Below are positions 17,727-55,999 of a stretch of DNA of 63,925 nucleotides, in pieces (the first letter of the stretch is position 1; every line of letters begins with the position of its first letter). The DNA is from an uncultured Opitutaceae bacterium (GTDB taxonomy: Bacteria; Verrucomicrobiota; Verrucomicrobiia; Opitutales; Opitutaceae): the NCBI GenBank assembly GCA_964429385.1, contig CAYSBR010000022.1, positions 1 to 63,925 of the forward strand. Direction: 5' to 3'. Made by a program: the position numbers and the translations under genes. The notes beneath the pieces are model-generated. The model made no database searches. It was given only the letters and a program-made list of their open reading frames with translations, and was not told where the DNA came from.

Positions 17727-17837
17727 AGGTTGGCCCGGCGGCGCATTTGGCTTCTCATGGCGGAACAAACCCGGCAAGAGGGTGCGCGAGTTTTCACCCC
17801 GTTCCCCCGCAATCGTCACCGGTTTGAGACCTTTGTC

Positions 17838-35010: not shown

Positions 35011-36309
35011 TCAGTCGCGGGGGTAGTCGGGCCAGATGTCGCGGAGGATGTCCACGCGCTGGGCGAAATTGACCATCACGCTGGAGGGGGCGCGGACGAT
35101 TTTGCCGGTGTCGAAGGAGACGGTGCCGATGATGTTGCCCGCGTTGAGGATAGCGACGATCTCTCCCTTGGCGTTGAAGATGGGGCTGCCGCTGGCGCCG
35201 CCGGTGGCGCCCAGGCTGTGCTGCACGAGCAGGCGTTTTTCGTAGGAGGCCTGGGCCAGCCAGAAGTCGGTGGCGGAGGTGACGATGCCGGACTGCATCG
35301 TGGCGACGGGGCTGCGCACTTCCACGCCGCCGCCGGCCATGCCTTCCATCGGGAAGCCGAGGTAGCCGATGCGATAGCCTGAATCGAGCTTCTCCAGTTC
35401 GGCGCGTTTCGCGACCTTGAAGATCCGGGGCGCGCTTTCATCCGTGTGCAGCAGGCCGACATCGTAGGCTGCGACGGCGGGCTGCTTGCCCTCGAAGTTC
35501 AGCTCCGTCTTTTCATAACGCGGATGCACGACCGCCCGGGTGATGCGGATTTTTTTGTCGGGGTTGCGGTTGATGACGATGTAGGCGGAGCCGCCGTTCT
35601 GGATCACCTCAAGGACCGGTTTGGAGACGTGGGAATTGGTGGCGAAGACGCGCGGCCCCACGGCCCAGGCGGTGGCCATCGGCGTGGGCTGGCCGTTGGA
35701 GATATTGGGATGCACGATGACGACCAGGCCGACGGCGTCGGAGTAATCCTGCGCGACCTGGGCGAGGGCTTTTTCAGGCGCGGGTTGGAGGAAGCTGAGT
35801 TTGTCGCGGAAGAACCAGCCGGCGGCGGCGAGCAGCACGACGAGCACGGCGACGATGGCGATCACCGGGCCGGCTCCGCCGGACTTCGGGGCGGGGGCCG
35901 CGGGTGATTCCACGGGTGCGGGGGCGGGCTGGGCGGCGACGGGAGGAGGCGCGGCCCGGGTGGCGGCCGGGGCGGGGGTGGCCGTCGCGACGGGCGCGGC
36001 GGGGCCCGCAAAATCCACCCGGACCTTCGGGCCGCCGCGGCCCAGCTCCAGCACGGCGCCGGGGGCGAGTTTTTCCTGCGCGACCTTGCGGTCAGCAATG
36101 AAGAGGCCGGCCTTGCTCTGGTCCTTGATCCACCAGGCGCCGCCGCGGTGCTCCATCACGAGATGCCGGCCGGACACGGTCTTGTCCCACGTGGCGTCGA
36201 AGCGCAGGTCGCAGCCGGCTTCGGTGCCGAGCGCGATGCTGTCCTGATCGAGGGTGAGCGTCTTGTTGCGGTCGAAACCGGTGAGGCGGGTCAGGGTGAT
36301 GGAGGGCAT
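35011..36309 (-). CDS. FHA domain - single TM - trypsin-like (S1/DegP-type) serine protease fusion protein
   Basis: N-terminal FHA (IALGTEAGCDLRF...VSGRHLVMEHRGGAWWIKDQSKAGLF), Pro/Ala-rich linker, TM (VIAIVAVLVVLLAAAGWFF), protease domain with His (TNSHV), Asp (DVGLL) and Ser (GASGSPIF); ATG 36309. Confidence 0.75.
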   Translation of the reverse strand: MPSITLTRLTGFDRNKTLTLDQDSIALGTEAGCDLRFDATWDKTVSGRHLVMEHRGGAWWIKDQSKAGLFIADRKVAQEKLAPGAVLELGRGGPKVRVDFAGPAAPVATATPAPAATRAAPPPVAAQPAPAPVESPAAPAPKSGGAGPVIAIVAVLVVLLAAAGWFFRDKLSFLQPAPEKALAQVAQDYSDAVGLVVIVHPNISNGQPTPMATAWAVGPRVFATNSHVSKPVLEVIQNGGSAYIVINRNPDKKIRITRAVVHPRYEKTELNFEGKQPAVAAYDVGLLHTDESAPRIFKVAKRAELEKLDSGYRIGYLGFPMEGMAGGGVEVRSPVATMQSGIVTSATDFWLAQASYEKRLLVQHSLGATGGASGSPIFNAKGEIVAILNAGNIIGTVSFDTGKIVRAPSSVMVNFAQRVDILRDIWPDYPRD

Positions 36310-36335: not shown

Positions 36336-36350
36336 GCAGGATACGTGCCA
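36336..36350 (-). promoter_or_regulatory. Putative sigma-54 promoter (TGGCAC-gtatc-CTGC, minus strand) for the FHA-protease gene
   Basis: Reverse complement of 36336..36350; correct spacing; -12 CTGC (3/4); ~27 nt before ATG 36309. Confidence 0.45.
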
Positions 36351-36413: not shown

Positions 36414-36428
36414 TGGCACGAGATTTGC
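36414..36428 (+). promoter_or_regulatory. Sigma-54 promoter, perfect consensus TGGCAC-gagat-TTGC(CA), 50 bp upstream of STK1
   Basis: Exact match to -24/-12 consensus. Confidence 0.75.
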
Positions 36429-36477
36429 CACAACGAAGGCAGCCAGTGGTACTGTCCCAGCTTTCATTTCTTTCCGC

Positions 36478-38322
36478 ATGAACGATCTCGATTTTGGTGA
36501 AACCCTCAAAGGCTTCAGCCCCGGCCAGAAAGCTTTCAATCGCTACACGCTGAAGAAAATCCTGGGTCGCGGCGGGATGGGGATCGTGTGGCTGGGGCGG
36601 GACGAGGAGTTGGAGCGCGACGTGGCGCTGAAGTTCCTGCCGGAAGTGGTGGCCTTGGACAAAGAGGCGATCCGCGACCTCAAGCGAGAGACGCGGCGCT
36701 CGCTGGAGCTGACACACCCGCACATCGTGCGGATCTACGACTTTGTGCAGGATGCCCGCATGGCGGCGATCTCGATGGAATACGTGGCCGGGGATACCTT
36801 GGCCTCGCGGAAGGTGGATCACCCGGAAGGCCGGTTTGAAGTGGAGGAGCTGAAAGCATGGACGGGGCAGTTGCTGGAAGCGCTGGCCTACGCGCACGGG
36901 AAGGCGGAAGTGGTGCACCGGGACCTGAAACCGGCGAACCTGATGGTGGACGCACGGGGCGACCTTAAAGTGGCGGACTTCGGGATCGCGGCGAGTGTGA
37001 GCGACTCGGCCTCACGGGTCTCGGCGCAGGCGGGGACGAGCGGGACGCCGGTGTATATGAGCCCGCAGCAGATGATGGGGGAGAAACCGGCGGTGACGGA
37101 TGACATTTATGCGCTGGGGGCGACACTCTACGACCTGCTGACGGGGAAGCCGCCGTTCCACGCGGGAAATATCATTTTGCAGGTGCAGAACAAAGTGCCG
37201 CCGACGCTCACGGAGCGGCGGGCGGAGCTAGGGGTGAAGGCGGGAGCGATTCCGGCGGAGTGGGAAGAGACAATCGTGGCGTGCCTAGCAAAGGAGCCGG
37301 GCGCCCGCCCGCAGAGCGCGGCCGAAATGGCGGAGCGATTGGGGTTAACCACGAAGGATACAAAGAGCGCGAAGCGCATACAAGTTGAAGCAGGAGAATC
37401 GGGGGCCGAAGGCAGGGCGAAGCCGCCGGCTGAGCCGGTTCCCCAAGCCAAAATCGAAAAGCCAAAATCGAAGATTTCACCGCTGGCGCTCGCTGCCGGC
37501 GTGCTGCTGCTTGCGGGGGCGGGCTATTACTTCGGTTATTATGCACCCGCGCAGAAGCGTCAGACTCCGGAGGTGATTGAGCGGGAGAAAATGGAGGTGA
37601 GCGGTGGTCGTGCGGCCTACGATGTGACGCCTGATTTGATCAAGGGCCTCGGCCCCGGCGATGACATCACGCCCGTGCCAGTGGACGAGCGTCATGCGAC
37701 GGATGATGGCGGTCTTTATTATGCCGTGGCCATCAACGACCGCGCGCTCATGGCCCAGCGGCTGGCCGCCGGGGCCAACCCGCTGGAGGGCGGATTCATT
37801 AGCTCCATTTACGGCATCGGCATCGGTGCTCCGCTGCAAGCGGCCTTGCGGGATGGTCGCTTCCTGCTCGTCCGCGAATTGCTGCGGCGCAGCCCCAAGC
37901 CTGACCCGCAGGAGTGGAGGACGGTGGATGGGTACCGGATGAGCTTTGCGACGGCCTGCGGCACCGGCAACTGGGATATGATCCAGTTGTTCCTTGATTT
38001 TCACCCGGTCGAGTGGGAACTCGATGCCTGGCTTGGGCTGCTTGAGACCAAGAAGCCGGAACTGCTTGAGCGCGCTGTGAGGGCAGGCGCCGATCCTAAT
38101 TACCGTGACAATCGTTCAGGTGCGACGCCCCTGCATAAAGCAGCGGCGGATGGGTTTAATGATGCGGCCATGCTTCGCGCATTCATAAACTTGGGCGCGG
38201 ATATTAAAGCGAAAGACAAGAGCGGCAAACTCCCGTTCGACTTGCTGAGCGCCGATGCTCCCGCCGAGATCCGGCGGCTGCTCACACCGGCCGGTGGTCA
38301 AACAATGGGGGCTGGCCGTTAA
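36478..38322 (+). CDS. Hanks-type Ser/Thr protein kinase with TM segment and C-terminal ankyrin repeats (STK1)
   Basis: Kinase subdomains: GRGGMGIVW, VALKFLP, HRDLKPANLM, DFGIA, SPQQ(APE-like); TM ISPLALAAGVLLLAGAGYYF; C-term ANK (GATPLHKAAADGFNDAAMLRAFINLGADIKAKDKSGKLP). Confidence 0.9.
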   Translation: MNDLDFGETLKGFSPGQKAFNRYTLKKILGRGGMGIVWLGRDEELERDVALKFLPEVVALDKEAIRDLKRETRRSLELTHPHIVRIYDFVQDARMAAISMEYVAGDTLASRKVDHPEGRFEVEELKAWTGQLLEALAYAHGKAEVVHRDLKPANLMVDARGDLKVADFGIAASVSDSASRVSAQAGTSGTPVYMSPQQMMGEKPAVTDDIYALGATLYDLLTGKPPFHAGNIILQVQNKVPPTLTERRAELGVKAGAIPAEWEETIVACLAKEPGARPQSAAEMAERLGLTTKDTKSAKRIQVEAGESGAEGRAKPPAEPVPQAKIEKPKSKISPLALAAGVLLLAGAGYYFGYYAPAQKRQTPEVIEREKMEVSGGRAAYDVTPDLIKGLGPGDDITPVPVDERHATDDGGLYYAVAINDRALMAQRLAAGANPLEGGFISSIYGIGIGAPLQAALRDGRFLLVRELLRRSPKPDPQEWRTVDGYRMSFATACGTGNWDMIQLFLDFHPVEWELDAWLGLLETKKPELLERAVRAGADPNYRDNRSGATPLHKAAADGFNDAAMLRAFINLGADIKAKDKSGKLPFDLLSADAPAEIRRLLTPAGGQTMGAGR

Positions 38323-38339
38323 TGCTAGTTTGGATGAAG

Positions 38340-38386
38340 CGCCCGGAATGCCCTTCATCTTCTCCAACCGCCACGCGCGGAGCGCA
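38340..38386. repeat. Truncated copy (loop + right arm only) of the REP/MITE-like element, copy 4
   Basis: cttcatcttctccaaccgccacgcgcggagcgcacggtccac matches loop/right arm of copy 5. Confidence 0.6.
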
Positions 38387-38415
38387 CGGTCCACTTGTTG
38401 AGCAAGGAACAGGGG

Positions 38416-40059
38416 TTATGGTTCCAGCTTCACGCGCCAGGTGCGGGCGCCGAGGCGGAGTTGCTGGCCGGTGGCGAGGGGGGCGATCTCGCCGGGGCGG
38501 AGGGTGAGGCGATCCACTTGCACGGCACTGTTGGCGACAAGGGTCTCGATCCAGAAACAGCCGCGGTAGTGGTGGAAGCGGCCCTGGACTTCGGCCAGGG
38601 TCGGGTCGGAGGTCATTACAATGGCGTTGGAGCGGCTGGTGCCGAAGGTGCCGTCGGTGTGCAGCCAGACGGCGTTGAGCGGCTGGGCCTCCGGGGGGAC
38701 GACCTCGAAGCGCACGGCGCCGCGCAAGAGCGGGGGCGTCGCGGGCGGGCCGGCCCATTGCCGGGCGTTGCTGATCACGGGGTCGCTTTCCACGCCGGGG
38801 GGCACGCGGTCGAAATCCACCTCGATGGCGCCGGCGAGCAGCAGCCGCCCCTGGCGCGGCAGCTGGGTGCCGTTTTCATCGAGCGGCACGCCGTCGAAGA
38901 GGCTGCCGTTGGCGCTGGCGTTGTCGCGGAGGAGGATGCCGTCGGGGGTGATCTCGGCGATGGCGTGGACTTTGCTCACGCGTTTGGTCTTGTCGTCGTT
39001 GGCCGGGTTGCGCGGGAGCAGCCAGGAGACGAAGTCGGCCTCGGCCCGGCCGCGGCCGAGGCTGAAGCGGGGCCGGGCGACGAGGCGGAAGGGCAGCGGA
39101 GAGACGTAGGCGCCGACCGCCTCCAGCGTGCAAAGCCCGGCGGGCTGCACGGTGGCGAGCAGGGCGGAAGGCAGGTGCAGGCTGGAGGCGTGCGTGGCGG
39201 CGCGGAAACCGGAGTCGTGGCGGCTCACCTCGTAGTCGAGATCGAGGGCGATGCGCTGGAAATTCTCCGGCAGGTCGAGGTCGAGCAGGTCGTTGACGGA
39301 CTTGATCGCACCCTTGGCGATGAGATTGCTGATCTGCACATCGCCGTATTCCGCGCCGAGGGCCTGGTTGGCGCCGCCGCCGGTGTTGCTCTGAATATCG
39401 CTGATGTTGATGACGATGTTGGAATTGTCGGGCGCCTTGTAGAGGCGGAGCGGGTGCTGGCCGCGGTAGGCCAGTCGCTGGCCAGCCTGGTCCCAGGCGG
39501 CGGCGATCTGGATGACAAAATGACCGGCGCGCGCAGCCTCGACTTCGAGGAGGAGATCGGTGCGGCTGCCGGCGCCGAGCCGGCGGACGCGGGAGAGGGC
39601 TTCGCCGGCCAGTCCGCGCGAGCTGACATACAGCTCCAGGTTTTCGATGGCGGCGGCGGATTCGTTTTCCGCGCGGAAGACGAGGGTGCCGGCGTGGCCG
39701 GCCACGAGGGCGTGCGGGAGGTTGAGTTCCAGCACGAGCGGGCTCGGGTCGTCGTTGCCGGTTGGTTGCGACGGCGCAGACGCAGGGGGGCGGACGATGG
39801 GCGGCGGCGGAGCCGGGGGCGCTTCAGGGACCGCAGGAGTAGGCGGCGCCGGATGGGCCGGCGTGCTCAGGGTGGCGGGGGGCGGGTTGGCCTCCGCCTC
39901 CGTTTCAGAATGCGGCCGGCTGGAGCTGCGCGACACCGCAGTCGCCTGCAAGGGGGAGGTTTCCTCCACCGGGTCAACCGGGGTGGCGGTGCCGCAGGCC
40001 GGGCAGAAGCGGCTTTTGGGGGTGAGGGGAGTCTGGCAGGCGGGACAGAAGCGTGGCAT
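38416..40059 (-). CDS. Zinc-ribbon - Pro-rich linker - central domain - tandem FHA-domain protein
   Basis: N-term MPRFCPACQTPLTPKSRFCPACG (double Zn ribbon); C-terminal region with two FHA-like modules (FSLGRGRAEADFV...ITPDGILLRDNASANGSLFDGVPL and GTSRSNAIVMTSDP...GCFWIETLVANSAVQVD); alternative start 40083. Confidence 0.65.
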   Translation of the reverse strand: MPRFCPACQTPLTPKSRFCPACGTATPVDPVEETSPLQATAVSRSSSRPHSETEAEANPPPATLSTPAHPAPPTPAVPEAPPAPPPPIVRPPASAPSQPTGNDDPSPLVLELNLPHALVAGHAGTLVFRAENESAAAIENLELYVSSRGLAGEALSRVRRLGAGSRTDLLLEVEAARAGHFVIQIAAAWDQAGQRLAYRGQHPLRLYKAPDNSNIVINISDIQSNTGGGANQALGAEYGDVQISNLIAKGAIKSVNDLLDLDLPENFQRIALDLDYEVSRHDSGFRAATHASSLHLPSALLATVQPAGLCTLEAVGAYVSPLPFRLVARPRFSLGRGRAEADFVSWLLPRNPANDDKTKRVSKVHAIAEITPDGILLRDNASANGSLFDGVPLDENGTQLPRQGRLLLAGAIEVDFDRVPPGVESDPVISNARQWAGPPATPPLLRGAVRFEVVPPEAQPLNAVWLHTDGTFGTSRSNAIVMTSDPTLAEVQGRFHHYRGCFWIETLVANSAVQVDRLTLRPGEIAPLATGQQLRLGARTWRVKLEP

Positions 40060-40146
40060 GGCGGTCTCTCCGGCATAAGCCATACCAGTTGGGGAGAAAA
40101 TTCCAGCATCCTTTCCACCAATGATTTTTGGATTTCGGCTCGCGGT

Positions 40147-40161
40147 TGGCACAGCAATTGC
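40147..40161 (+). promoter_or_regulatory. Sigma-54 promoter, perfect TGGCAC-agcaa-TTGC, ending 12 nt before ATG 40174
   Basis: Exact consensus; implies a leaderless or near-leaderless transcript. Confidence 0.7.
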
Positions 40162-40173
40162 CGATATCCGCCC

Positions 40174-41019
40174 ATGATGATTCCAAATCGCTTTCTTACC
40201 TGCAAGCGGCTGGGGACGGCCGCCGTGGCCCTGTTTTTTTCCTGCCTGCTTGCCGCCCAGGGACCGGAGGATTCCCGCGAAGACCAGCAGGTGCGCGTGC
40301 AGATCACCGAGCTCGGCCTGCTCCGCACGCTCATCCTCATGGCGCCCGATTCGCAGGATCTCGCCGGGCAGGTGCGGCAACAGTTTGTGGACCGCGACTA
40401 TGAGGTTTACACCGACGCCCAGCGCATCTCGGGCCGCGTGACCTCGGCGCAGATGCGCGAGGCGGGCGAGTCGGAAAACGCCGACCTCGTCGTCTATGCG
40501 CGCATCGTCGGCGACCGCCGCCGCAGCAATGCCTCGGGGTTCAAGCTCTATGAGGCGACGGCGGGGGTGCAGGTCTTCAACCGGCTCACCGGCCGCGAGG
40601 TCGTGAGCAAGGAGGTGCGCGTGAGCGGCACCCGCCATCCCGATGAAATCGAGGCCCGGCGCTCGGCACGGGAGAAGGCGATGGAGCGGGCGACGCGCGA
40701 AGCCATCGAGGGCACGCTCGCCACGGCGCACAAGATCCTCGTGCACCATGCCGTCATCGTGAACGTCTTCAGCGAAAGCGGACTGCTCGCCCTCATGGAA
40801 TACATGGGGAAGATGGAAGGCGTCTATCACGTGAAGCGACTGGAGTTCGACCGGCAGACCAACGAGGCGCTCATCGAGATCATCGGCGAGCCGCGCTCGC
40901 AGACCTTCTGGCGCGCCTATCTGGAAAAGCTGCCCAAGACCAAGGTGAACGTGCAGGTGACGCCCAACGACAGCCTGCACAACAAGTATCCCGACTGGTT
41001 CCTGCCGCCCGCGCAGTGA
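40174..41019 (+). CDS. Secreted hypothetical protein (signal peptide MMIPNRFLTCKRLGTAAVALFFSCLLAAQG)
   Basis: In-frame ATG pair at 40174/40177 followed by a canonical signal peptide; 281 aa. Confidence 0.55.
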   Translation: MMIPNRFLTCKRLGTAAVALFFSCLLAAQGPEDSREDQQVRVQITELGLLRTLILMAPDSQDLAGQVRQQFVDRDYEVYTDAQRISGRVTSAQMREAGESENADLVVYARIVGDRRRSNASGFKLYEATAGVQVFNRLTGREVVSKEVRVSGTRHPDEIEARRSAREKAMERATREAIEGTLATAHKILVHHAVIVNVFSESGLLALMEYMGKMEGVYHVKRLEFDRQTNEALIEIIGEPRSQTFWRAYLEKLPKTKVNVQVTPNDSLHNKYPDWFLPPAQ

Positions 41020-41047
41020 ACTCCGTTTCCTTCCCCCTTCTTTCCAC

Positions 41048-41806
41048 ATGAAAACGCTCTTCATCCTTCTCGCCGCCCTGGCCGGTGCCGTTTCACTCGC
41101 CGCCCAATCCGCCACCACGCCCGCGCCCGCCGCCCCGCCGGTGGCCGTCACCCCGGCGCTCAAGCCCGTGGACTGGAAGGCCGATCCCACGATGACGGAA
41201 TACGCCAAGCAGGCGGGCACGCTCGCCATCCAGGAATGGGTGCAGGAATTCCTCGGCAAGCAATTCGACGCGAAGCGCTATGCGATCTTCCCCGTCGGCA
41301 GCGACCTCGACGACGGGTATTTCACGCTGCAAATCCGCAATCTTTTCGCCAGCGGCGCGCTGGGTTCGGACTACTCGCTCTACACGCGCGAGGATCCGGC
41401 CTGGGACGCCATTGTGGAAAAGGAGATGCGGATGGGCTTCGACCGCGAGGGCATGATGGACGAGGAAACCATCGCGCGGTGGGGTCGGGAGAACGGCGTG
41501 CAGGGCGCGATCCGCGGCCGCATCTCCGGCGTGTTCCTCGGCCAGGGCCCGGGCACGGGCGGCATCCGCATGGCGGACGACGCCCGCATCCTGCAGGTGC
41601 GCGTGCTGCTCCAGGTTTTTGAAATCGAGACCGGCCGCCTCCTGTGGGGGGCCGAGCGCGTGGCCGCCGTGCAATTGCCCGACGAGTCACTGATCATCCC
41701 CGGGACCAAGCGCCAGTGGATCCTCTATGGCGGGGCCGGCCTCCTCGGCCTGATCGTGATCATCTTCATCCTGCGCGCGCTCAAGTCGGCCAACCGTCCC
41801 CGCTGA
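41048..41806 (+). CDS. Exported hypothetical protein with signal peptide and C-terminal TM anchor
   Basis: MKTLFILLAALAGAVSLAAQ signal; C-terminal WILYGGAGLLGLIVIIFIL TM. Confidence 0.55.
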   Translation: MKTLFILLAALAGAVSLAAQSATTPAPAAPPVAVTPALKPVDWKADPTMTEYAKQAGTLAIQEWVQEFLGKQFDAKRYAIFPVGSDLDDGYFTLQIRNLFASGALGSDYSLYTREDPAWDAIVEKEMRMGFDREGMMDEETIARWGRENGVQGAIRGRISGVFLGQGPGTGGIRMADDARILQVRVLLQVFEIETGRLLWGAERVAAVQLPDESLIIPGTKRQWILYGGAGLLGLIVIIFILRALKSANRPR

Positions 41807-41843
41807 ACGCATGTTCCTCCGGTCCAAAGGACGGAAGCGCCCG

Positions 41844-42404
41844 ATGAAAATGGCGGCCATCCGCTTGCTGCTGGTTTTCGCTGTTAGCGGGCTGTCCGCC
41901 TCCGAAATTTTTGCCGCCCCGGTGACAGTGATGGCGCAGGCGCGGCAAGACCCCGCGGCGCTCGCGGAGTTAAATGCGGTGCTTTGGCAGCCCCTGGAAT
42001 CTGCCTTTGCCGCGGGCGATGCCGCGGCTTGGCGCGCTTTGTTCAAGCCCGGTGCACTGCTGGCCAGTGGCGATATGCCAACCCTCAACCTGGTTGAAAC
42101 GCAGGCTCTCGGCGTGGAACGCCGGTTCAAGCTTCGGCATGGCCGCGAGGGATTCGGCTTGGTGGTTCGATTTACGGAGCGTGCTGTGGCGGGAGGGCTG
42201 GCGTCGGAGCGCGGGATTATCGAGGAAACAAACTGGAGCGTGCGGGACCGCTGGGAAAAGGTTTACCGCGAATTCCATGCGTTTGCGCGCAAGGTGGACG
42301 GCGTGTGGCAGTTCGAGGTCTTTTACCAAAAAACGCTGTCGGGTGATTATGCGAGCCGGGCCTTTGCCGCGGCGTCGGCGATGGCGGATCTCAAACGGTT
42401 TTAA
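41844..42404 (+). CDS. Exported hypothetical protein (NTF2/SnoaL-like fold suspected)
   Basis: Signal peptide MKMAAIRLLLVFAVSGLSASEIFAAP; ~185 aa. Confidence 0.45.
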   Translation: MKMAAIRLLLVFAVSGLSASEIFAAPVTVMAQARQDPAALAELNAVLWQPLESAFAAGDAAAWRALFKPGALLASGDMPTLNLVETQALGVERRFKLRHGREGFGLVVRFTERAVAGGLASERGIIEETNWSVRDRWEKVYREFHAFARKVDGVWQFEVFYQKTLSGDYASRAFAAASAMADLKRF

Positions 42405-42434
42405 ACCATCACGACAACAAGCCGCACAGACTGC

Positions 42435-44273
42435 ATGGACGACCTCGACTTCGGCGCCACGATCAAGGGGTTTTCCCCGGGACAGAAGGTTTTCAACCGC
42501 TACACGCTGACGCGCATCTTGGGGCGCGGCGGCATGGGTGTCGTCTGGCTGGCGCGGGACGAGGAACTGGAGCGCAATGTCGCCCTGAAGTTTCTGCCCG
42601 AAGTAGTCGTGCTTGACCGCGAGGCGGTGGACGAACTCAAGCGCGAGACGCGGCGCAATCTGGAGCTGACGCATCCGCACATCGTGCGGATCTACGATTT
42701 TGTGTCGGATGGTCGCGCGGCGGCGATCTCGATGGAGTATGTGGAGGGAGCCTCGCTCTCGGCCCTGAAGGTGGAGCAGCCGGAGAAGGTCTTTCCGGTG
42801 GAGAAACTCCGTCGCTGGGTGGCGCAGGTGGGCGAGGCGCTGGAGTATGCGCACACGCGGGCCAAGGTGGTGCACCGCGACATCAAGCCAGCCAACCTGA
42901 TGATTGACGCGCAGGGCGACGTGAAGGTGACGGACTTCGGGATTGCGCGTTCGATTGCCGACAGCGTCAGCCGCGTCAGCGCGCAACTGGCGGGCAGCAG
43001 CGGGACGCCGGTGTATATGAGCCCGCAGCAGATGATGGGGGAGAACCCGGCGGTGGCGGACGATGTGTATGCCCTGGGGGCGACGCTGTATGAATTGCTG
43101 ACGGGGAAGCCGCCTTTCTACACGGGCAACGTGGTTTTGCAGGTGCAGCACAAGGTGCCGCCGACGCTGGCCGCGCGCCGCGAAGAGCTGGGCCTCAAGG
43201 CCGGGCCGGTGCCGGAGCATTGGGAGAAGACCATCGCCGCGTGTCTGGCGAAGGAGCCGGCGGAGCGGCCGAAAAGCATGGCGGAGGTGGTGCGGTTGCT
43301 TGACGGGCCGGGCCCCGGAGCGGACACGGCGAAGGATCCCTCCGCGCTATTCGAGGAGGTTTTTGGAAAGGCGCCTTTTACCAAGCTCTTTGATGAGGTT
43401 CCCGGATCATCACCAGTCGGCGGGTGTGAACGCGGGACCGATCTGCACAGTGAACTGAGCCTGACGGCGGACGAGCTGGCGAAGGGTGGTGAGCGCCACG
43501 TCCACTTTCCGCGGGCGGGTCAGACGGTCCGGCTCGTATTGACGATCCCCCCGCAATCGCGGGCAGGGCAGAAACTGCGCATCCGGGGACAGGGTGGGCC
43601 GGGGGTGAATGGTGGCGAGGCGGGGGATTTATATATCGTCCTGCAACTGGCCGCCGAGCCGGCGGTGCCGCCCTCTGGTCGGCGGGGGTTGGCTGCCTCT
43701 GTTCCGCGGTTGCTCGCCGCCTTGGTCGGCTCGGCGATCTTGCTGGGCGTGGCGATTCGCTGGCTTCTGGGGGTGTGGAGCAACGAATTGGCGTGGGACT
43801 GGCGTTGGTATGATTACTCCACCTTGCTGGGCTGGAGCATAATCACCGCGCTTTTCGGAGGCTGGGCAACCTCAGGCCGGCTGGGCCGGGGATGCTGGAC
43901 GATCTTTGCCGCGGGCGTGGGGCTGACGGGTATCCTGTATATGGAGACGGGGGAATTGCTTTTGTATGGCGGCTCGTATGATAGCGCGGCCCTGGCCTTC
44001 AATCTCACGGGCGCATCGGTGGCGGGCATGATCCTGGGCGGGGTGGGCGGTTTCGCTCTGAGCCGGGTCGCGGGCCTGCGGCCAAGGCTGGGGCTGGAAA
44101 TATTCTGGGGGATCGTGGGTGGAGTGATCGTAACCGCGGGCGCACTGGTCGCCCAGCCGCCCCGTTTTTCGGATTTTGATTTCAGCCTCTTCTCCTGGTG
44201 CGTGATCGGCGGGCTCGGCTGGCTGCAGGCCCTCCGCTTGATGCTCGTGCGCGCACCGGCTCCGTCCGCTTAA
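42435..44273 (+). CDS. Ser/Thr protein kinase with DnaJ C-terminal-domain-like segment and ~8-TM C-terminal region (STK2)
   Basis: Kinase head ~85% identical to STK1/3/4; middle GQKLRIRGQGGPGVNGGEAGDLYIVLQ resembles DnaJ CTD; C-terminus with Gly-rich TM helices. Confidence 0.9.
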   Translation: MDDLDFGATIKGFSPGQKVFNRYTLTRILGRGGMGVVWLARDEELERNVALKFLPEVVVLDREAVDELKRETRRNLELTHPHIVRIYDFVSDGRAAAISMEYVEGASLSALKVEQPEKVFPVEKLRRWVAQVGEALEYAHTRAKVVHRDIKPANLMIDAQGDVKVTDFGIARSIADSVSRVSAQLAGSSGTPVYMSPQQMMGENPAVADDVYALGATLYELLTGKPPFYTGNVVLQVQHKVPPTLAARREELGLKAGPVPEHWEKTIAACLAKEPAERPKSMAEVVRLLDGPGPGADTAKDPSALFEEVFGKAPFTKLFDEVPGSSPVGGCERGTDLHSELSLTADELAKGGERHVHFPRAGQTVRLVLTIPPQSRAGQKLRIRGQGGPGVNGGEAGDLYIVLQLAAEPAVPPSGRRGLAASVPRLLAALVGSAILLGVAIRWLLGVWSNELAWDWRWYDYSTLLGWSIITALFGGWATSGRLGRGCWTIFAAGVGLTGILYMETGELLLYGGSYDSAALAFNLTGASVAGMILGGVGGFALSRVAGLRPRLGLEIFWGIVGGVIVTAGALVAQPPRFSDFDFSLFSWCVIGGLGWLQALRLMLVRAPAPSA

Positions 44274-44324
44274 CCGGACCGGGGCGGATGAATCATAGAG
44301 GAGTCGTTGATCTTGCCGGTTGAA

Positions 44325-44404
44325 GGGTGGGCCGTGCGCTCCGCGCGCGGCCCGGATGTGCTTCATCTTCTCAAAACCGCCGTGCGCGGAGCGCCCGGCC
44401 CACC
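44325..44404. repeat. REP/MITE-like palindromic element, copy 5
   Basis: Between convergent STK2 and bEBP stops. Confidence 0.85.
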
Positions 44405-44479
44405 TATGAGCGGGGAGCGCGGAGATTGGGTTGCTCGGAGGGCGGCGGGCGCGAGTGCGCGCGAGACATTGGCGCTGAC

Positions 44480-46138
44480 TCACCGCAGAGCGGCTTTCAC
44501 GCTGGCGGCGGCGAGCACCGGGTCGTCGGTCTCCATGGCGAGGCGCTGGATGACGTTGCGGAGTTCGCGGACGTTGCCGGGCCAGCGGTGTTTTTGCAGG
44601 GCGGCGAGGGCGTCGGGGGCGAAGCGGATGGCGGCGAGTCCGTTCTCGGCGCAGAACTGGTCGAGGAAGTGGCGGGCGAGGAGGGGGATGTCGCCGGGGT
44701 GCTCGCGCAGCGGGGGCACGGCGACGGTGGCGACTTCGAGGCGGTAGAGCAGATCTTCGCGGAAGTTGCCGGCTTTCACCTCGGCGCGCAGGTCGCGGTT
44801 GGTGGCGGCGAGGATGCGCACGTCCACCTTGGTCACGCGTTCGCTGCCGAGACGTTCGACTTCGCCGGATTCAAGGGCGCGCAGGAGTTTGGACTGGACG
44901 GGGAGAGGCAGTTCGCCGACTTCGTCGAGAAAGAGCGTGCCGCCGTGCGCGAGCTGGAACTTGCCCTGATGGTCGCTCTTCGCGTCGGTGAACGCGCCTT
45001 TCACATGGCCGAAGAGTTCGCTCTCCATGAGCGGGGCGGGAATGGCGGCGCAGTTGACCTTCACGAAGCGTTGCTTCGCGCGCGGGCTGTGGTCGTGAAG
45101 GAACTGGGCGACGACTTCCTTGCCGCTGCCGGTCTCGCCGGTGATGAGGGCGGTGGCCTTGGTGCGGGCGATGCGTTCAAGGCGCGTGCGCAGCGCGGCG
45201 AGCACGGGGCTGTCGCCGAGGAGGCCGGAGGCCGCGGCGGTGCGCTTGCGCAGGGTGTCGTTTTCTCGGCGGAGGGTGGTGAGCTCGCGGTTGCGCTGGC
45301 GGCCGCGGGGCCAGAGGCGCAGTGCGGCGTTGAGGAGGAGGCGGTCGGCGGCGGAGAACTCCTCCCAGCCGGCGGCGCGCAGGAGGACGACGACGGCGGC
45401 GCCGTCGCCGGTCGCGGTGGGCAGGGGGCAGGCGAGGAAATGCCAGTCGCCGAGCTTTTGCTGGAAGCGCGCGAGGTCGCGGGCGGTGTAGGTGGCGGCT
45501 TCGGGGAGGTGCCGGAATTTGTCGAGCAGGTAGGGCGCGAACTTCGGCACGCCTTTCACCTTCTCGGCCGCGGCGCTGAACTGGAGCTGGTCGTCGGGGG
45601 AATAATACTGGGCGACGGCGGCGCGCACGCCTTCGAGGAGCAGGTCGAGCAGGAGCGGTTCGGCGTCCTCGACGGGCTCGCCCTCGGTCACGCGGAAGCA
45701 GAGGTGGTAGAGCGCGGCGAGGTGGCGTTCCTGCCGGGGGTCGGGCAGGGCGGGGCGGGCGTGCCGCGTTTCGAGCAGGGCCTTTTCATCGTCGGGCTCG
45801 GGGTGAAGTCCGGGGGTGACGGGGCGGACAAAGCCGGCGGCGAACTCCAGTTCGACGGTGCCGATCCGGATGCGGTCGCCGGGTTGCAGGACGGCTTCGC
45901 GTCGCGGGGCGCCGTTGACCTGCACGCCGTTGCGGCTGCGGAGGTCGCGCAGCAGGAAGCCGCTGTCGGCCGGCATGATCTCGGCGTGGCGGCGGGAGAC
46001 GGAGGGATCGTCGAGCACGATCGCGTTGTCGGAAGCGCGGCCGATGTCCGTGGCGGTGGCAGGGGCGAGGGCAAAGTTCGCGACCGGCCGGCCGTGGCGG
46101 AGCAATACCAGCGTGGGATTTTGCAGAGCGCGCAGCAT
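44480..46138 (-). CDS. Sigma-54-dependent transcriptional activator (bEBP) with N-terminal FHA domain in place of a receiver domain
   Basis: FHA ([34 protein letters not shown]...[10 protein letters not shown]), central AAA+ sigma54-interaction domain ([18 protein letters not shown]-like [15 protein letters not shown]), C-terminal Fis-type HTH ([14 protein letters not shown]). Confidence 0.9.
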
Positions 46139-46291
46139 GAGGGCAGATGTAGGCGTTCCGCGTGCCAAAACGGAAGGATTTTTCCCGGAGGCGGATGTTT
46201 TACGTGTTGCCCAATCCCATGGTGTGCACTGCATTGGCGCGCACAGCCCGTGACAGGTCGTCGGGAAGATAATGCAGAATTTCGGCGGACT

Positions 46292-46306
46292 TGGCACGGA
46301 CTTTGC
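46292..46306 (+). promoter_or_regulatory. Sigma-54 promoter, perfect TGGCAC-ggact-TTGC, ~60 bp upstream of the lipoprotein gene heading the 46366..55873 gene string
   Basis: Exact consensus; divergent from the FHA-bEBP gene. Confidence 0.8.
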
Positions 46307-46365: not shown

Positions 46366-46899
46366 ATGAATATCCGAATCCTCACCCCGTTTGTGTTCGG
46401 CCTGGCGGCGCTGCTGCTGGCCGGCTGTGAAACCACCCAAGGCCCGTCGCCTGCGCTCAACAACCAGCCGGCCGTGCAGACGGGCAAGCGGCTCGACCCC
46501 GCGCCGGTGTCCCAGTCCTTTGCCGGCAAGAAGGATGTGTTCCAGGGAGCGGAATATGATCCCGGCGTGGGCGTGCCGCTCGATGGCGCGCGGCAGATCC
46601 GCCTGAGCCCGGGCCAGATCATGGAGGTTTACCGCGGCAGCTTCGCGCCCGGCGACGGGCAGCGCGAGATGGCTTTCTATTTGCCGGTCGAGGCGCGGTC
46701 GGTGGTGCAACTGGTCGTGGAGACCCGCGGGTTCACCAAGACCTATTTCCTGCGCGCGCTCGGCCCGGGCAACACCGTGGGCGGCGTGGTGGAGCGCCGC
46801 TGGCTCAACTCAGAAGGTTACGATCCACGCAACGCGGCGGACGAGGCGCGCATCCAGGCGGCCGTCCGCGCCGCTCCCTACCTGATCAACGTTTACTGA
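46366..46899 (+). CDS. Lipoprotein (lipobox LLAGC), hypothetical
   Basis: [21 protein letters not shown]... signal peptidase II motif. Confidence 0.6.
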
Positions 46900-46907
46900 T
46901 GTCCGCC

Positions 46908-47138
46908 ATGAAATCGCCGTTTTTTCCCCGTCTGCGCGCCGGCCTTGTCGCGGTGTGCGCCACCCTTTCCCTCACCGCGTGCTGGACGGTTGAAACCGGA
47001 CCGGGCGTGACGCCCGATCCCGATCAGCGCGGCACGGTTTACGGAGTCGAGCCGGAGCATGCGCCCATCCCGCAGAAAGAGGTGCCCGCCGGCGAGTCTT
47101 CCCTGCGCAAGCGGGGCCCGGACCAGCGGATCGACTGA
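46908..47138 (+). CDS. Small lipoprotein (lipobox LTAC), hypothetical
   Basis: MKSPFFPRLRAGLVAVCATLSLTAC; 76 aa; start could be 46899. Confidence 0.4.
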   Translation: MKSPFFPRLRAGLVAVCATLSLTACWTVETGPGVTPDPDQRGTVYGVEPEHAPIPQKEVPAGESSLRKRGPDQRID

Positions 47139-47174
47139 ACCGCGCGCACACCCCTCACCGAGGAGCATATCACC

Positions 47175-48731
47175 ATGGGATTCTACAACCAACGCTGCCC
47201 GAACTGCGGCAAGGCCGTCTCGAAGGAAGCCGAATTTTGCAATGGCTGCGGCTGCCCGACCGCCAGTGCCTGGTCCAGTTGCCACCGCTGCGGCTCGGCC
47301 GTCGGCGCGGAGTCGAAGTTCTGCTGGAAGTGCGGCACCGAGCAGGATCCCGCCAAGCGCCAGCAGTTTTATGGCGATCGCTGGCAGCGTTCGCCGGAGG
47401 ACTTCGCCGTGCGGGTGGAGCTGAAGACGCCCGCCGCCGTGCTGCACCGCGGCCTGCAGGTGGACGATGGCACGATCGCGCTGGTGTTTCAGAATGGAAA
47501 ATTCCAGGGCCTGCTGGAGGCCGGCTACCATTCCTTCGACAATTTCTTCTCGCGGCTGCTCGGCTTCGACAAGGGCAAGGAGGCGCATGCCGTGCTCATC
47601 GACACGCGCGCGGCCGAGGTGGATTTCATGCTGGAGGACATCCGGCTGAGGAACCAGATCCCGGTGGATGCGCGGTTGCGGCTGCTCTTCCAGGTGCGCG
47701 AGCCCCGGCTTTTCGCCGAGCGCGTGCTCGATGGCGCGGGCGACTTTCAGACCAGCGACCTGACCGGCCGTTTCCAGGGCGAGGTGCGCGCCGCGGTGCA
47801 GGCCGTGGCGCAGGAGCGCACGCTGGACGAGGTGCTGCTTGCCGCCACCGCCCGCGAATTGCTGGAGCGCGATCTCATGGCGCGGCTGGAGCCGGCGCTG
47901 GCGCCCTTCGGCCTCGTGATCGAGGGCGTGCGGCTGGCTGAGTTCGGCGGCCCGGCCGTGGCCGAGATGCGCGCCAAGCTCGGGGAGATCGACCGGCTCA
48001 ACCGTGAGCTGGAGGCGAACCGCCGCCTGCAGGATGCGGTGCGCGCCGGCAAGATCGACGCCTATCGCGACGAGCAGCAGCTCAAGGATGCCTATGACCG
48101 CGTCACGCATGAATACGGGTTGAACACCGTGGCCCGCGAGGAGGACCGGAAGCGCTTTGTGCAGGTGCTGGAGCAGCAGACACAGGTCGAGGGCCTGCGG
48201 CTGGACTACGAGGCGCGCCGGGCCGAGATTCTCAACCGGCTGGATGAGCAGAAGCTGCGGCACCAATCGGAAATCGCCGATGCGGTGCATGGCGTGGAGC
48301 TGCGCAAGGTCGAGTTTGCCGAGGACATGCGCCAGCAGCGCGAGCGGTTCGGCACCGGGCAGGAGCAGCAGGTGACGCAGGCGAAGACGGATCTTGAGGT
48401 CGCGCGGCAGGGCGTCGAGGCGCTGAAGCTGGTGAAGCAGGCGAAATTCGAGGCGAAGAAAACCGAGGATGAGCACGAACTGGCGATGGAGGCGCAGCGC
48501 CTGCAGCTGCGCGGCAGTGCCGACATCAAGGCGCTGCTTGCCACGCTCGACGGCGAGAAGGCCGACCGCATCCTCAAGCTCGCCGAGCTGGAGATGCGCA
48601 AGGGGCTGGATGTCGAGCAGGCGCTGGCTCTGGTCGTCGAGAAATCCCCCGAGATCGCCCCGGCCGTGGCCGAGGCGATGCGGGCACGCTATGCCCGGCA
48701 GGGTGAGGCGGGCAATCCGGGCGGCGCCTGA
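47175..48731 (+). CDS. Zinc-ribbon - SPFH/band-7 (flotillin-like) - long coiled-coil protein
   Basis: N-term multiple CxxC (CPNCGKAV...CNGCGC...CHRCGSAV...CWKCGTE); SPFH-like core (GTIALVFQNGKFQGLLEAGYHSF...); ~250-aa EA/Q-rich coiled coil like flotillin. Confidence 0.6.
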   Translation: MGFYNQRCPNCGKAVSKEAEFCNGCGCPTASAWSSCHRCGSAVGAESKFCWKCGTEQDPAKRQQFYGDRWQRSPEDFAVRVELKTPAAVLHRGLQVDDGTIALVFQNGKFQGLLEAGYHSFDNFFSRLLGFDKGKEAHAVLIDTRAAEVDFMLEDIRLRNQIPVDARLRLLFQVREPRLFAERVLDGAGDFQTSDLTGRFQGEVRAAVQAVAQERTLDEVLLAATARELLERDLMARLEPALAPFGLVIEGVRLAEFGGPAVAEMRAKLGEIDRLNRELEANRRLQDAVRAGKIDAYRDEQQLKDAYDRVTHEYGLNTVAREEDRKRFVQVLEQQTQVEGLRLDYEARRAEILNRLDEQKLRHQSEIADAVHGVELRKVEFAEDMRQQRERFGTGQEQQVTQAKTDLEVARQGVEALKLVKQAKFEAKKTEDEHELAMEAQRLQLRGSADIKALLATLDGEKADRILKLAELEMRKGLDVEQALALVVEKSPEIAPAVAEAMRARYARQGEAGNPGGA

Positions 48732-48742
48732 GGCGGAATTTC

Positions 48743-51364: not shown

Positions 51365-51420
51365 GCGCAGCATGATCACAGCGGCAAAAAATCCCCCGCG
51401 CGCAGGCGCGTAAAACTTCC

Positions 51421-52236
51421 ATGAATACGCCGGGTAGCACGCTTTTCGAATGGACCGCCTTTTCCGACCTGGGGAAGCGGCGCAAGAACAACGAGGATGC
51501 GTGGGCGGCGTGGGCGCTCGGGGAGATCGTGGCCTGGATGCCGGCCGCGCCGCAGGTCTGGCCTGCCGCCGGTTTTTTGCTGGTGGTGAGCGATGGCATG
51601 GGCGGCGCGCTGGCCGGCGAGGTGGCGAGTGCGTTCTGCGCCAGCCGGATTGCCCGGGATTTGCATGTCCGGCGGAAGGAGCCGGATCGGGAAAAGGCCA
51701 TGCGCGAAGCATTTCTGGCCACGCATGAGGCGCTGATCGCGGAGGCGAGTGCCGATCCCACCCAGCATGGCATGGGAGCGACTCTGACCGTCCTGTGGCT
51801 GCTGGCGGACGGCGAGCTGATCTTCGGCCATATCGGGGACAGTCGTCTCTATGCGCGGCAGGACGGGGCGTGGCGGCTTCTGAGCGAGGATCAAAACGTG
51901 GGCGCCGGCATGATCCGGCGGGGCGAGATGACGGCGGCGGAGGTCAACCGGTTGCGTTATCGCTCGATGCTGGAGCAGGTGATGGGCGGCACCGGCGTGC
52001 CGTTATCGCCGCAGATCGGCCGCGGACGCTGGCAGCCGGGGGCGGCCTTTGCCCTTTGCTCGGACGGGTTGCACGGTCCTTTGGAACAGGGGTTGGAGGC
52101 GCGCTGGGAAACGGCCTGCTCCCGTGAGTCGCTGGAGGCGGGCGCCCGCGGGCTGGTGGACGAGGCGAACGAGGTGGGCGGTCCCGATAATATCACCGTG
52201 TTGCTGGCACGCTTCATGCCGGAAGCCCGGTTATGA
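51421..52236 (+). CDS. PP2C-family Ser/Thr protein phosphatase
   Basis: SDLGKRRKNNEDAW, VSDGMGGALAGEVAS, GHIGDSRLY, DNITVLLARF motifs (PPM metal-binding Asp residues). Confidence 0.85.
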   Translation: MNTPGSTLFEWTAFSDLGKRRKNNEDAWAAWALGEIVAWMPAAPQVWPAAGFLLVVSDGMGGALAGEVASAFCASRIARDLHVRRKEPDREKAMREAFLATHEALIAEASADPTQHGMGATLTVLWLLADGELIFGHIGDSRLYARQDGAWRLLSEDQNVGAGMIRRGEMTAAEVNRLRYRSMLEQVMGGTGVPLSPQIGRGRWQPGAAFALCSDGLHGPLEQGLEARWETACSRESLEAGARGLVDEANEVGGPDNITVLLARFMPEARL

Positions 52237-52610
52237 AAAACGACACTCTGCCCCGCGAACATCCGGCCGGCTCCGACTGGGAGCGGTTCCTGCGCGAGCG
52301 CAGTGCGCTGGGGTTGCCGGAGCTTGATCTGGCGATGCTCGGTCCGGGCGACCGTCTCGTGGTCGAGACCCTGCACACGCGCTACGGTTTTGAATGGAGC
52401 GAAGCCGACCGGGTGGAATTGACGACGAACCGCGCCGACCGCCCGAGAGGGCCGGTGCGTATTCAAGGGTGCGCATTTGGCCGCTCCAGCAGCATCAAGC
52501 CGCGGCATCTTTTTTGTGGCGGCAACCTGGAGTATCTTTCCGACAACGGGCGCCTAGTCCACCGCACCACGGCCATCCTCTCTCTCGTCCTGCTGCGCCG
52601 CAGCCGATGA
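52233..52610 (+). CDS. Small hypothetical protein translationally coupled between PP2C and STK4
   Basis: ATGA overlaps at both ends (52233-52236 and 52607-52610); 125 aa; no known domain. Confidence 0.4.
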   Translation: MKNDTLPREHPAGSDWERFLRERSALGLPELDLAMLGPGDRLVVETLHTRYGFEWSEADRVELTTNRADRPRGPVRIQGCAFGRSSSIKPRHLFCGGNLEYLSDNGRLVHRTTAILSLVLLRRSR

Positions 52611-52642
52611 ACCGAGAAAAACCACCGCCTCTCATCCCGCAC

Positions 52643-55873: not shown

Positions 55874-55999
55874 GCCTTGCGCCGCATTCCGTGCGAAGCT
55901 TCGGTGTTTCCCTTCGTGACTCCGGCGCAGTACGTGGAGCGCCGGCATTTTTCCGGCTGCGCGCTTGACGGCGGGGCGGATTGCGGGAGGCCTTGGCTC

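Follow-up and report, generated by a model that had tools for sequence, protein, structure and literature searches.

Putative sigma-54 promoters upstream of a Hanks-type kinase cluster in Opitutaceae, with an adjacent FHA-domain activator that lacks a DNA-binding domain

A 63,925-bp stretch of DNA (contig CAYSBR010000022.1 of assembly GCA_964429385.1, 63-70% GC; hereafter the window) from an uncultured soil/freshwater bacterium of the Opitutaceae (Verrucomicrobiota) carries a cluster of genes for four Hanks-type Ser/Thr kinases (STK1 to STK4), a PP2C phosphatase and several FHA-domain proteins. Sites that match the sigma-54 consensus stand directly upstream of the kinase operons, and among these operons lies a gene for a sigma-54 activator, a bacterial enhancer-binding protein (EBP) with an FHA domain at its N-terminus and no DNA-binding domain. 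We propose that four of the sites, P1 to P4, and perhaps a fifth at 52205, are functional sigma-54 promoters that the FHA-domain EBP activates without an enhancer, in a kinase circuit that regulates itself, and we judge this reading, taken as a whole, to be probable. Its parts differ in strength. That the sites are real sigma-54 promoters we think very likely from their sequence and conservation; that the adjacent EBP is the protein that activates them we think likely; and that the kinases and the phosphatase of the cluster in turn control the EBP is, on present evidence, only somewhat favored over its opposite.

A search of the window for TGGCACNNNNNTTGC (TGGCAC-N5-TTGC, with its GG and GC doublets 10 bp apart) returned exactly three matches, all 10/10 and all on the plus strand, at 36414-36428 (TGGCACGAGATTTGC), 40147-40161 (TGGCACAGCAATTGC) and 46292-46306 (TGGCACGGACTTTGC), and these are the three perfect sites that a first-pass annotation of this DNA had reported. 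That annotation had expected about 0.1 chance matches per 64 kb and had called three sites within 10 kb non-random. Dinucleotide-preserving shuffles of the window (100 in number) bear out both statements, giving 0.21 exact matches per window, which is of the same order of magnitude, with a maximum of 2 and none of the 100 shuffles reaching 3. The three sites are all in intergenic DNA, in a window with a non-coding share of ~13.5%, and each is oriented toward a downstream gene on the plus strand. Relaxing the -12 box to NTGC added four sites, at 36336-36350 (minus strand, CTGC, a single mismatch), 6940 (plus strand, GTGC), 52205 (plus strand, ATGC) and 17712 (minus strand, ATGC). The last of these, TGGCACCGGCAATGC, is deep inside a gene for a 1229-aa protein and was treated as a chance match. 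The remaining sites are as follows, with gaps counted from the C of the -12 GC to the ATG.

36414-36428, plus strand: P1, cgcTGGCACgagatTTGCC, exact match, intergenic, 49 nt before the STK1 ATG (36478)
36336-36350, minus strand: P4, tcTGGCACgtatcCTGCC, CTGC -12 box, 26 nt before the start of the FHA-trypsin gene (36309), divergent from P1
40147-40161, plus strand: P2, gtTGGCACagcaaTTGCC, exact match, 12 nt before the secreted-protein ATG (40174)
46292-46306, plus strand: P3, ctTGGCACggactTTGCC, exact match, 59 nt before the lipoprotein ATG (46366), divergent from the EBP gene
52205-52219, plus strand: P5, no more than a candidate, TGGCACgcttcATGCC, within the 3' end of PP2C, 13 nt short of the orf125 ATG
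6940-6954, plus strand: amtB site, TTGGCACaggctGTGCT, 72 nt before the amtB ATG (7027), outside the kinase regulon

The genes that these sites face were mapped from third-position GC content (GC3) and Pfam matches, and the operons were compared with those of related loci (numbered from L001 and described below).

35011-36309, minus strand: protein with FHA and trypsin-like serine protease domains (FHA-trypsin; Pfam Trypsin_2 and Yop-YscD_cpl/FHA), downstream of P4
36478-38322, plus strand: STK1, Hanks-type kinase with ankyrin repeats (Pfam Pkinase, 1.5e-46, and Ank), downstream of P1
38416-40059, minus strand: zinc-ribbon and FHA protein (ZnR-FHA; Pfam), divergent from P2
40174-44273, plus strand: P2 operon (GC3 and Pfam; synteny in L001, L002 and L003), made up of genes for a secreted protein (40174-41019), hypA (41048-41806), hypB (41811-42404) and STK2 (42435-44273)
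44480-46138, minus strand: FHA-domain EBP, 552 aa (Pfam, NCBIfam, family survey, AlphaFold2 and Foldseek)
46366-56242, plus strand: P3 operon (Pfam, GC3 and homologues; synteny in L001-L006, L011 and L012), with a first half of lipoprotein (46366-46899), small lipoprotein (46899-47138), ZnR-SPFH (47175-48731) and STK3 (48743-51364), and a second half of PP2C (51421-52236), orf125 (52233-52610), STK4 (from ~52607 or 52643 to 55873) and hypC (55877-56242)

The first-pass annotation had placed the perfect sites before STK1, before the operon that runs from the secreted protein to STK2, and before the gene string from the lipoprotein to STK4, and the intergenic positions and gaps listed above agree with it. 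Its order for that last string (lipoprotein, ZnR-SPFH, STK3, PP2C, STK4) is correct, but it overlooked two small genes there (46899-47138 and orf125, 52233-52610), as well as the sigma-54 activator gene at 44480-46138 on the minus strand. Its wider proposal, RpoN control of the kinase network, is reasonable from the sequence because all four kinases, PP2C and the FHA-protease are encoded downstream of sites.

Further support for the sites comes from related genomes. Six orthologous loci (L001-L006) were fetched with the EBP from metagenome-assembled genomes of Opitutaceae and Lacunisphaera (69-84% identity), and homologue look-ups supplied seven more distant loci of the family (40-66% EBP identity; among them L011, L012 and L014-L017). 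The pattern TGGCA[CT]-N5-[TC]TGC matches 31 times in the 256 kb formed by the window and 10 related loci, against 2.1 +/- 1.4 expected and a maximum of 6 in 200 shuffles. Intergenic status was taken from gene calls and tblastn maps (an ORF-based mask for L001-L006 was dropped, its open reading frames, or ORFs, being over-extended upstream to the point of marking intergenic sites of the window as coding), and by this measure 30 of the 31 matches are intergenic, the remaining one falling ~61 nt inside the 5' end of a called ORF. All 31 face a downstream gene, and the kinase-cluster sites lie 12-60 nt upstream of start codons. It could be argued that a genome of 66% GC generates GGC/GCC-rich words, so that the matches are an artefact of chance or composition, and that only 100-200 shuffles were made. 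The size of the excess over these shuffles, the intergenic position of the sites although ~86% of the DNA is coding, and their conservation at orthologous positions leave this explanation effectively refuted.

The sites also keep company with the same kinds of genes. Both STK genes and sites are present in 13 of the 14 loci that encode the EBP family (window included); the fourteenth, L016 (45% EBP identity), has no kinase genes and no sites in its 21.6 kb, comprising the EBP gene and 10 kb on each side. In the 13 related loci, operons for kinases, FHA proteins, PP2C and SPFH again have the motif YTGGCAYG-N4-YTGCC a short way upstream, and extra sites are found 25-33 nt upstream of other STK paralogs in L001, L004, L005, L006 and L011. 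These paralogs carry the P1 core, which is the sole invariant block upstream of their ATGs. Among the more distant loci, L011 (66% identity) has five sites, before an FHA-trypsin gene, two STKs, a lipoprotein gene and a small ORF, and L012 (54%) has sites before a hyp181-SPFH-PP2C-FHA-trypsin operon, an STK and the EBP gene itself. The last two are perfect sites placed back to back (9847-9861 on the minus strand and 9890-9904 on the plus strand) that face the STK gene and the EBP gene, an arrangement that would imply direct autoregulation of the EBP in L012; the window has no such arrangement. In L015 (50%) and L017 (49%), operons that contain STKs have exact sites in front of them, and in L014 (40%) the sites are of CTGC type and stand before PEGA and LpoB-like genes located next to STKs. 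As separate observations on gene content, the EBP of L017 is coupled to a gene for a caspase-like peptidase C14 and to an STK with a peptidoglycan-binding domain (1179-9819), and in L015 a gene for an extracytoplasmic function (ECF)-type sigma factor is directly upstream of an STK-PEGA-FGE gene (5968-9110).

At the positions of the window itself, conservation singles out the same elements. In an alignment of seven genomes, TTGGCAYGGrCTTTGCC is the clearest conserved island between the divergent EBP and lipoprotein start codons, and an equivalent of P3 faces the lipoprotein gene, ~154 bp upstream of the EBP start, in six of six close loci (L001-L006), with further equivalents in L011 and L012 and probably in L015. 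The P2 element and its 12-nt spacing to ATGATG are kept in L001, L002 and L003. For P4, whose minus-strand sequence is TGGCACGTATCCTGC, CTGGCAC-N4-CCTGCC is the sole conserved island upstream of the FHA-trypsin orthologues of four genomes (the window, L001, L002 and L011), and the C at the first position of its -12 box is itself conserved. The annotation had listed P4 as a weaker fourth site that faces the FHA-protease gene, divergent from the STK1 site; because nothing else is conserved upstream of this gene in four genomes, we take the CTGC site at 36336 to be genuine.

Outside the kinase cluster, the window offers an internal positive control. The amtB-glnB pair is a classical target of NtrC and sigma-54, and the amtB site at 6940 stands before an amtB gene that is followed by glnB/PII (8487-8825). 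This site is weaker (GTGC) and has a T after the -12 GC, unlike 31 of 31 kinase-cluster sites.

The base after the -12 GC is the one respect in which the kinase-cluster sites depart from the textbook. The 31 compiled sites read (G)Y-TGGCA(C/T)-G-(G/C)NN-T-(T/C)TGC-C, and the extended sigma-54 consensus, reportedly compiled by Barrios et al. in 1999, is YTGGCACG-N4-TTGCW. At positions that our search left unconstrained, a Y precedes TGGCAC in 29 of 31 sites and a G follows it in 27 of 31, both as in the canonical consensus, while position 16, just after the -12 GC, is C in 31 of 31 where the canonical consensus has A/T. Apart from this C in place of W, the putative promoters agree with every defining sigma-54 feature that is accessible to sequence analysis. 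Shared ancestry is not the only source of the invariance, because at least ~12 promoter lineages among the sites are independent of one another.

The invariant C also completes a partial palindrome, GGCA-N7-TGCC, and this raises the question of whether the motif could be the operator of a dimeric transcription factor rather than a promoter. Positions 2-5 (GGCA) and 13-16 (TGCC) are perfect reverse complements, C16 strengthens the symmetry beyond that of the canonical TTGCW, and L004 has a fully palindromic version, TGGCACGCGGCGTGCCA. The symmetry ends at the conserved flanks, with CG at positions 6-7 against T and T/C at 11-12 (TT in the exact consensus), and T at position 1 is invariant although just 7 of the 31 sites have an A at its symmetric partner, position 17. 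The motif is also directional, in that the TGGCAC half is always distal to the gene and the TTGC half proximal, at a promoter-like 12-60 nt. Asymmetric flanks and fixed orientation argue against a symmetric operator, and a motif that is itself the sigma-54 consensus, with a sigma-54 activator gene beside it, makes this alternative very improbable.

The adjacent activator is what would tie the putative promoters to Ser/Thr phosphorylation. Its gene lies between the STK2 operon and P3 and is divergent from P3. Pfam recognizes an FHA domain (1.8e-19, residues 31-93), the sigma-54-interacting AAA+ domain PF00158 (6.8e-68) and an AAA lid reaching to the end of the chain, with no Response_reg match anywhere in the protein, and alignments to the NCBIfam models of NtrC, NifA, NorR and PspF stop 80-100 model positions before the helix-turn-helix (HTH). 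Judged by its sequence, the product of 44480-46138 is therefore a bacterial EBP by its AAA+ domain that lacks the C-terminal HTH (Fis-type, PF02954) otherwise expected of one. The same holds for its family. A database search returned more than 100 sequence clusters (43-85% identity, ~550 aa), those from named sources being mostly from Opitutaceae, Lacunisphaera or Verrucomicrobia; HTH_8 was found in none of these clusters, and none of 37 diverse members matched HTH_8 or GAF even at E<=0.1. Distant deltaproteobacterial relatives (P0117-P0119, 38-39% identity, ~610 aa) have the architecture FHA-GAF-AAA+-HTH_8 and extend ~55-75 residues further C-terminally, with 231-251 residues from the sigma-54-contact loop to the C-terminus against 176-181 in the EBP family. 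Across 120 homologues, that loop reads GAFTDA in 92 and GAFTGA in 6.

Conservation and predicted structure agree with this architecture. In an alignment of 37 family members (40-84% identity), the FHA residues that bind phospho-threonine are invariant (R34, S48 and H51) or nearly so (N70 and G71), as are the Walker A motif GETGSGKE, the Walker B DE and loop residues G381, A382, F383, T384 and A386, and Thr124 is invariant in an otherwise variable linker. The AlphaFold2 model (mean pLDDT 89.9) consists of an FHA beta-sandwich (8-101), a disordered linker (102-117), a helix that holds Thr124 (118-125), an alpha/beta middle domain (135-255), a long helix (263-303), the AAA+ core (307-476) and the lid (478-551), and the chain ends at 551 without an HTH. 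By Foldseek, the AAA+ core superposes on NtrC1, FleQ, FlrC and LuxO at 1.4-1.9 A, and full-length matches cover the AAA+ part only; a PDB sequence search gives Rv1747 and OdhI/GarA as the nearest solved relatives of the FHA domain. The middle domain, to which the model gives an alpha/beta topology, is collinear with the GAF region of P0118. We did not retain its identification as GAF, given the absence of a Pfam GAF match in 37 members, and call it GAF-like by position only.

An activator of this kind would have no use for an enhancer, and we find no shared one. Eight STK-proximal promoters aligned over ~200 bp have only TGGCA.G...TGCC in common upstream of the ATG, with no common upstream activating sequence, which fits an activator without a DNA-binding domain. 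One further conserved element was found near a promoter:

46196-46236, no strand assigned: conserved block, TTGCCCAAT...CACTGnATTGG, with a CCAAT-N17-ATTGG inverted repeat, the second island of the seven-genome alignment

This block has the EBP gene on one side and P3 on the other, and the -24 box follows ~80 bp downstream. It occupies the same place in L001-L005, occurs nowhere else in the window or in those loci, and is not shared with P1, P2 or P4. We considered the TTGCCCAAT...ATTGG block as a shared enhancer and rejected it, as it is confined to the spacer between the EBP and lipoprotein genes and the eight STK promoters have no common sequence upstream of their -24 boxes. The block may serve the EBP gene as promoter or operator, or it may be where another regulator binds. 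A different inverted repeat, GGGCAcGCAAG-tct-CTTGCCC, stands midway between the divergent P4 and P1 (36361-36381); it has no orthologous spacer to be compared with, as STK1 does not occupy this position in the other loci.

Several known systems resemble parts of this one. FHA-domain EBPs of Myxococcus xanthus, which Jelsbak, Givskov and Kaiser are said to have described in 2005 (PNAS 102:3010, a paper cited in PMC12288465 and PMC4320627), likewise have an N-terminal FHA domain instead of a receiver domain on a sigma-54 activator, in hosts rich in Hanks-type kinases, and FHA input on such an activator implies that Ser/Thr phosphorylation feeds into sigma-54 transcription. Unlike the Opitutaceae family, these proteins have a C-terminal HTH; the Opitutaceae family also differs in its predominant GAFTDA loop, in a middle domain that Pfam does not recognize as GAF, and in its predicted targets, which are the adjacent kinase, phosphatase and FHA genes. 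The absence of an HTH has parallels elsewhere, one of them in the Chlamydiae, which belong with the Verrucomicrobiota to the PVC superphylum. CtcC of Chlamydia trachomatis is a sigma-54 activator without a DNA-binding domain (PMC7482065), and for FlgR of H. pylori enhancer-independent activation of sigma-54 is reported (Brahmachary et al. 2004, as cited in PMC3162934). Like them, the Opitutaceae EBP ends after the ATPase and lid; it is presumed to activate transcription from solution, at promoters that can do without a common upstream site. FlgR and CtcC differ in their input, a receiver domain phosphorylated by a histidine kinase as opposed to an FHA and an alpha/beta middle domain, and in their hosts. 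Specificity is no issue for them because their organisms have one or very few EBPs, whereas the Opitutaceae bacterium also serves nitrogen-type promoters such as that of amtB. As far as sequence can tell, the EBP combines Myxococcus-type FHA input with a FlgR/CtcC-type absence of a DNA-binding domain and is not categorically new.

Two further comparisons concern the phosphorylation side. In the actinobacterial proteins GarA and OdhI, a Hanks-type kinase phosphorylates a Thr that is then bound by the protein's own FHA domain. These are among the nearest solved relatives of the EBP's FHA domain, beside which the invariant Thr124 is found, and they differ in that they regulate metabolic enzymes, not transcription. 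The threonine-phosphorylation pathway of type VI secretion systems (T6SS) pairs PpkA, PppA and Fha1 with the sigma-54 activators VasH and Sfa2 (PMC10482370). As here, a Hanks-type kinase, a PP2C, an FHA protein and sigma-54/EBP control come together in one cluster, and the FHA-protease and ZnR-FHA proteins of the window give weak TagH-like FHA matches (the FHA-trypsin protein matches FhaB-like FHA domains as well). The Pfam gene map of the window holds no T6SS structural genes, and T6SS pathways employ an FHA protein and an EBP that are distinct molecules, the one acting post-translationally and the other transcriptionally.

We envision the following circuit. Sigma-54 holoenzyme would form closed complexes at P1 to P4, and these promoters would transcribe STK1, the FHA-protease gene, the secreted-hypA-hypB-STK2 operon and the lipoprotein-SPFH-STK3-PP2C-(orf125)-STK4 operon. 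Given its lack of a DNA-binding domain and the absence of a common upstream element from the promoters, the EBP most likely acts from solution, and it would engage promoter-bound holoenzyme as is reported for FlgR and CtcC. Its FHA domain retains the phospho-threonine-binding residues, and EBP activity is therefore probably governed by kinases and PP2C acting against each other, that is, by a phospho-threonine state to which four Hanks-type kinases and one PP2C would contribute in opposite directions. The FHA domain might bind a phosphorylated kinase or partner protein, or it might bind phospho-Thr124 of its own chain or of a neighboring protomer, in the manner of GarA and OdhI, and by either route the assembly of the AAA+ ring would be controlled. 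That Thr124 is phosphorylated is no more than a hypothesis, suggested by analogy; phospho-threonine control could be activation or inhibition. Since the regulated genes would be those of the kinases and the phosphatase themselves, the circuit would be auto-regulatory.

A number of observations weigh against this proposal. No rpoN gene lies in the window, and support for sigma-54 in this genome is indirect, from the sigma-54 regulons reported in class Opitutia (PMC12316311) and from the intact EBP. The orthologous sites are statistically non-independent, and the 31 sites correspond to only ~12 or more independent promoter lineages. The sigma-54-contact loop of the EBP is GAFTDA and not GAFTGA; GAFTDA is among the variants reported as compatible with activation (D. 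vulgaris DVU2106; PMC4641369). Neither the EBP gene nor the ZnR-FHA gene has a convincing sigma-54 site in this genome: a possible self-promoter of the EBP at 46153 on the minus strand (TGGCACGCGGAACGC, two mismatches) is not conserved in orthologues and was rejected, and no minus-strand site with two or fewer mismatches exists before ZnR-FHA in 40060-40173. With their genes not downstream of sites, the sensor and the regulator are presumably expressed constitutively. Without a DNA-binding domain, moreover, the EBP has no obvious means to choose these promoters over others, for example that of amtB, and nothing tethers it to P1 to P4.

This last point is an argument for an alternative in which the promoters are real but are activated by an HTH-bearing EBP encoded elsewhere, the local FHA-domain EBP having other targets or only a loose association with the cluster. 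Such an activator could have its enhancer in the conserved inverted repeat ~80 bp upstream of P3, and L016 shows a member of the EBP family without kinase genes nearby. Yet the repeat is unique to one spacer and absent from P1, P2 and P4, and the STK promoters offer no other common upstream sequence to which an activator might bind. At EBP identities from 84% down to 40%, the EBP gene is still accompanied by the sites and by kinase, FHA and PP2C genes, and in L012 it has a perfect site of its own. On balance, we regard an activator from elsewhere as improbable and prefer activation by the local EBP.

Promoter spacing at P2 is a further difficulty. The transcription start site predicted for P2, 11-12 nt after the GC, falls on the ATG or 1 nt before it, so the 12-nt gap predicts a leaderless or near-leaderless mRNA for the secreted-hypA-hypB-STK2 operon. 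The start codon of the secreted protein is probably right, because the N-terminus that it encodes is a typical signal peptide. Read from the sequence, the spacing either supports leaderless sigma-54 transcripts in this lineage or weakens the promoter reading for P2. Gaps of 12-14 nt from GC to start recur in the window (40161-40174 and 52219-52233) and in L001 (10841-10854), L002 (18362-18375), L003 (~9390-9403) and L017 (412-427 and 7899-7912), and this recurrence predicts leaderless transcripts from sigma-54 promoters. A second class of sites, with gaps of 25-33 nt, serves most STK paralogs and the FHA-trypsin genes. As an observation of its own, the leaders before the ATGs at 7027, 36309 and 46366 and before STK genes in L001-L011 are C/A-rich (e.g. 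CACCCACC) and have no Shine-Dalgarno-like GGAGG, which suggests that translation initiation in this lineage can be independent of a Shine-Dalgarno sequence. The P5 candidate has the short-gap geometry as well as C at position 16, and it could be an internal promoter for orf125, STK4 and hypC; counting against it, the site is not conserved in L011, where PP2C and orf126 are also adjacent.

If the kinase-cluster sites are promoters activated by the local EBP, the question of how they are told apart from amtB-type promoters has a speculative answer. The sites may form a dedicated subclass of sigma-54 promoters, some of them leaderless, whose specificity resides in the invariant C after the -12 GC (TTGCC) and not in an enhancer, with the pairing of GAFTDA and TTGCC insulating the regulon from amtB-type (GTGCT) promoters and an HTH-less EBP reading the state of paralogous membrane Hanks-type kinases. 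We offer this tentatively, as a possibility that we would not at present bet on. A 2025 comparative study of the class Opitutia lists nitrogen fixation, motility and ABC transporters among sigma-54 regulons, and neither FHA nor threonine is mentioned in its main text (PMC12316311). Our literature search found no paper that combines Opitutaceae with sigma-54.

Several details of the operons complete the gene map. The genes of the P2 operon are separated by 28, 4 and 30 nt. Besides their kinase domains, STK1 has ankyrin repeats, STK2 a DnaJ_C domain (Pfam Pkinase and DnaJ_C), and STK3 a beta-helix region. The small lipoprotein at 46899-47138 (79 aa, lipobox LTAC) is kept in L001-L006, L011 and L012. 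The product of orf125 has 125 aa; the gene overlaps the PP2C stop (ATGA), has coding-type GC3 and has a 56%-identical homologue downstream of PP2C in L011. For STK4, because the N-terminal extension from 52394 (52394-52650) has non-coding GC3, we moved the start away from 52394; it is most likely 52607 (MNREK, with an ATGA overlap with the orf125 stop) or 52643 (MDDLDL).

Other scans of the window added little. Across the window, no Rfam family reaches its gathering threshold, which means that the conserved blocks do not correspond to a known RNA. PADLOC returns only generic matches to a kinase domain (PD-T4-6), a protease and an AAA+ protein (RtcR-like), and no specific defense system. Between 36000 and 55990 there are no sigma-70-like sites (2.0 expected), by a consensus that may not apply to this phylum, and 22 terminator-like sites against 15.8 expected, a number that is uninformative on operon boundaries. 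Elsewhere in the window, two adjacent minus-strand genes for proteins of 1229 and 480 aa (14217-17906 and 17916-19358) have coding GC3 and no Pfam match, and two minus-strand genes for PhyH-family dioxygenases flank a plus-strand gene for an AraC-type regulator (9181-11801) in what looks like a small catabolic module.

To our knowledge, the route from eukaryote-like Ser/Thr kinases to transcription is poorly understood outside Actinobacteria and Myxococcus, and we know of almost nothing on gene regulation in the Verrucomicrobiota, which are abundant in soil, freshwater and the gut. The locus described here is a compact, conserved and testable module of sensor kinases, a PP2C phosphatase, an FHA-domain EBP and putative sigma-54 promoters on the kinase genes, and it predicts a feedback-controlled, all-or-none induction. 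The EBP would extend the short list of sigma-54 activators without a DNA-binding domain to a large family of more than 100 clusters with an input other than a receiver domain, and this family raises the question of how promoter specificity is achieved by such proteins. The motif YTGGCAYG-N4-YTGCC can be used to annotate the regulon in Opitutaceae genomes. The module would thus provide a conserved and experimentally tractable link between Hanks-type kinase signaling and sigma-54 transcription in a poorly studied phylum.

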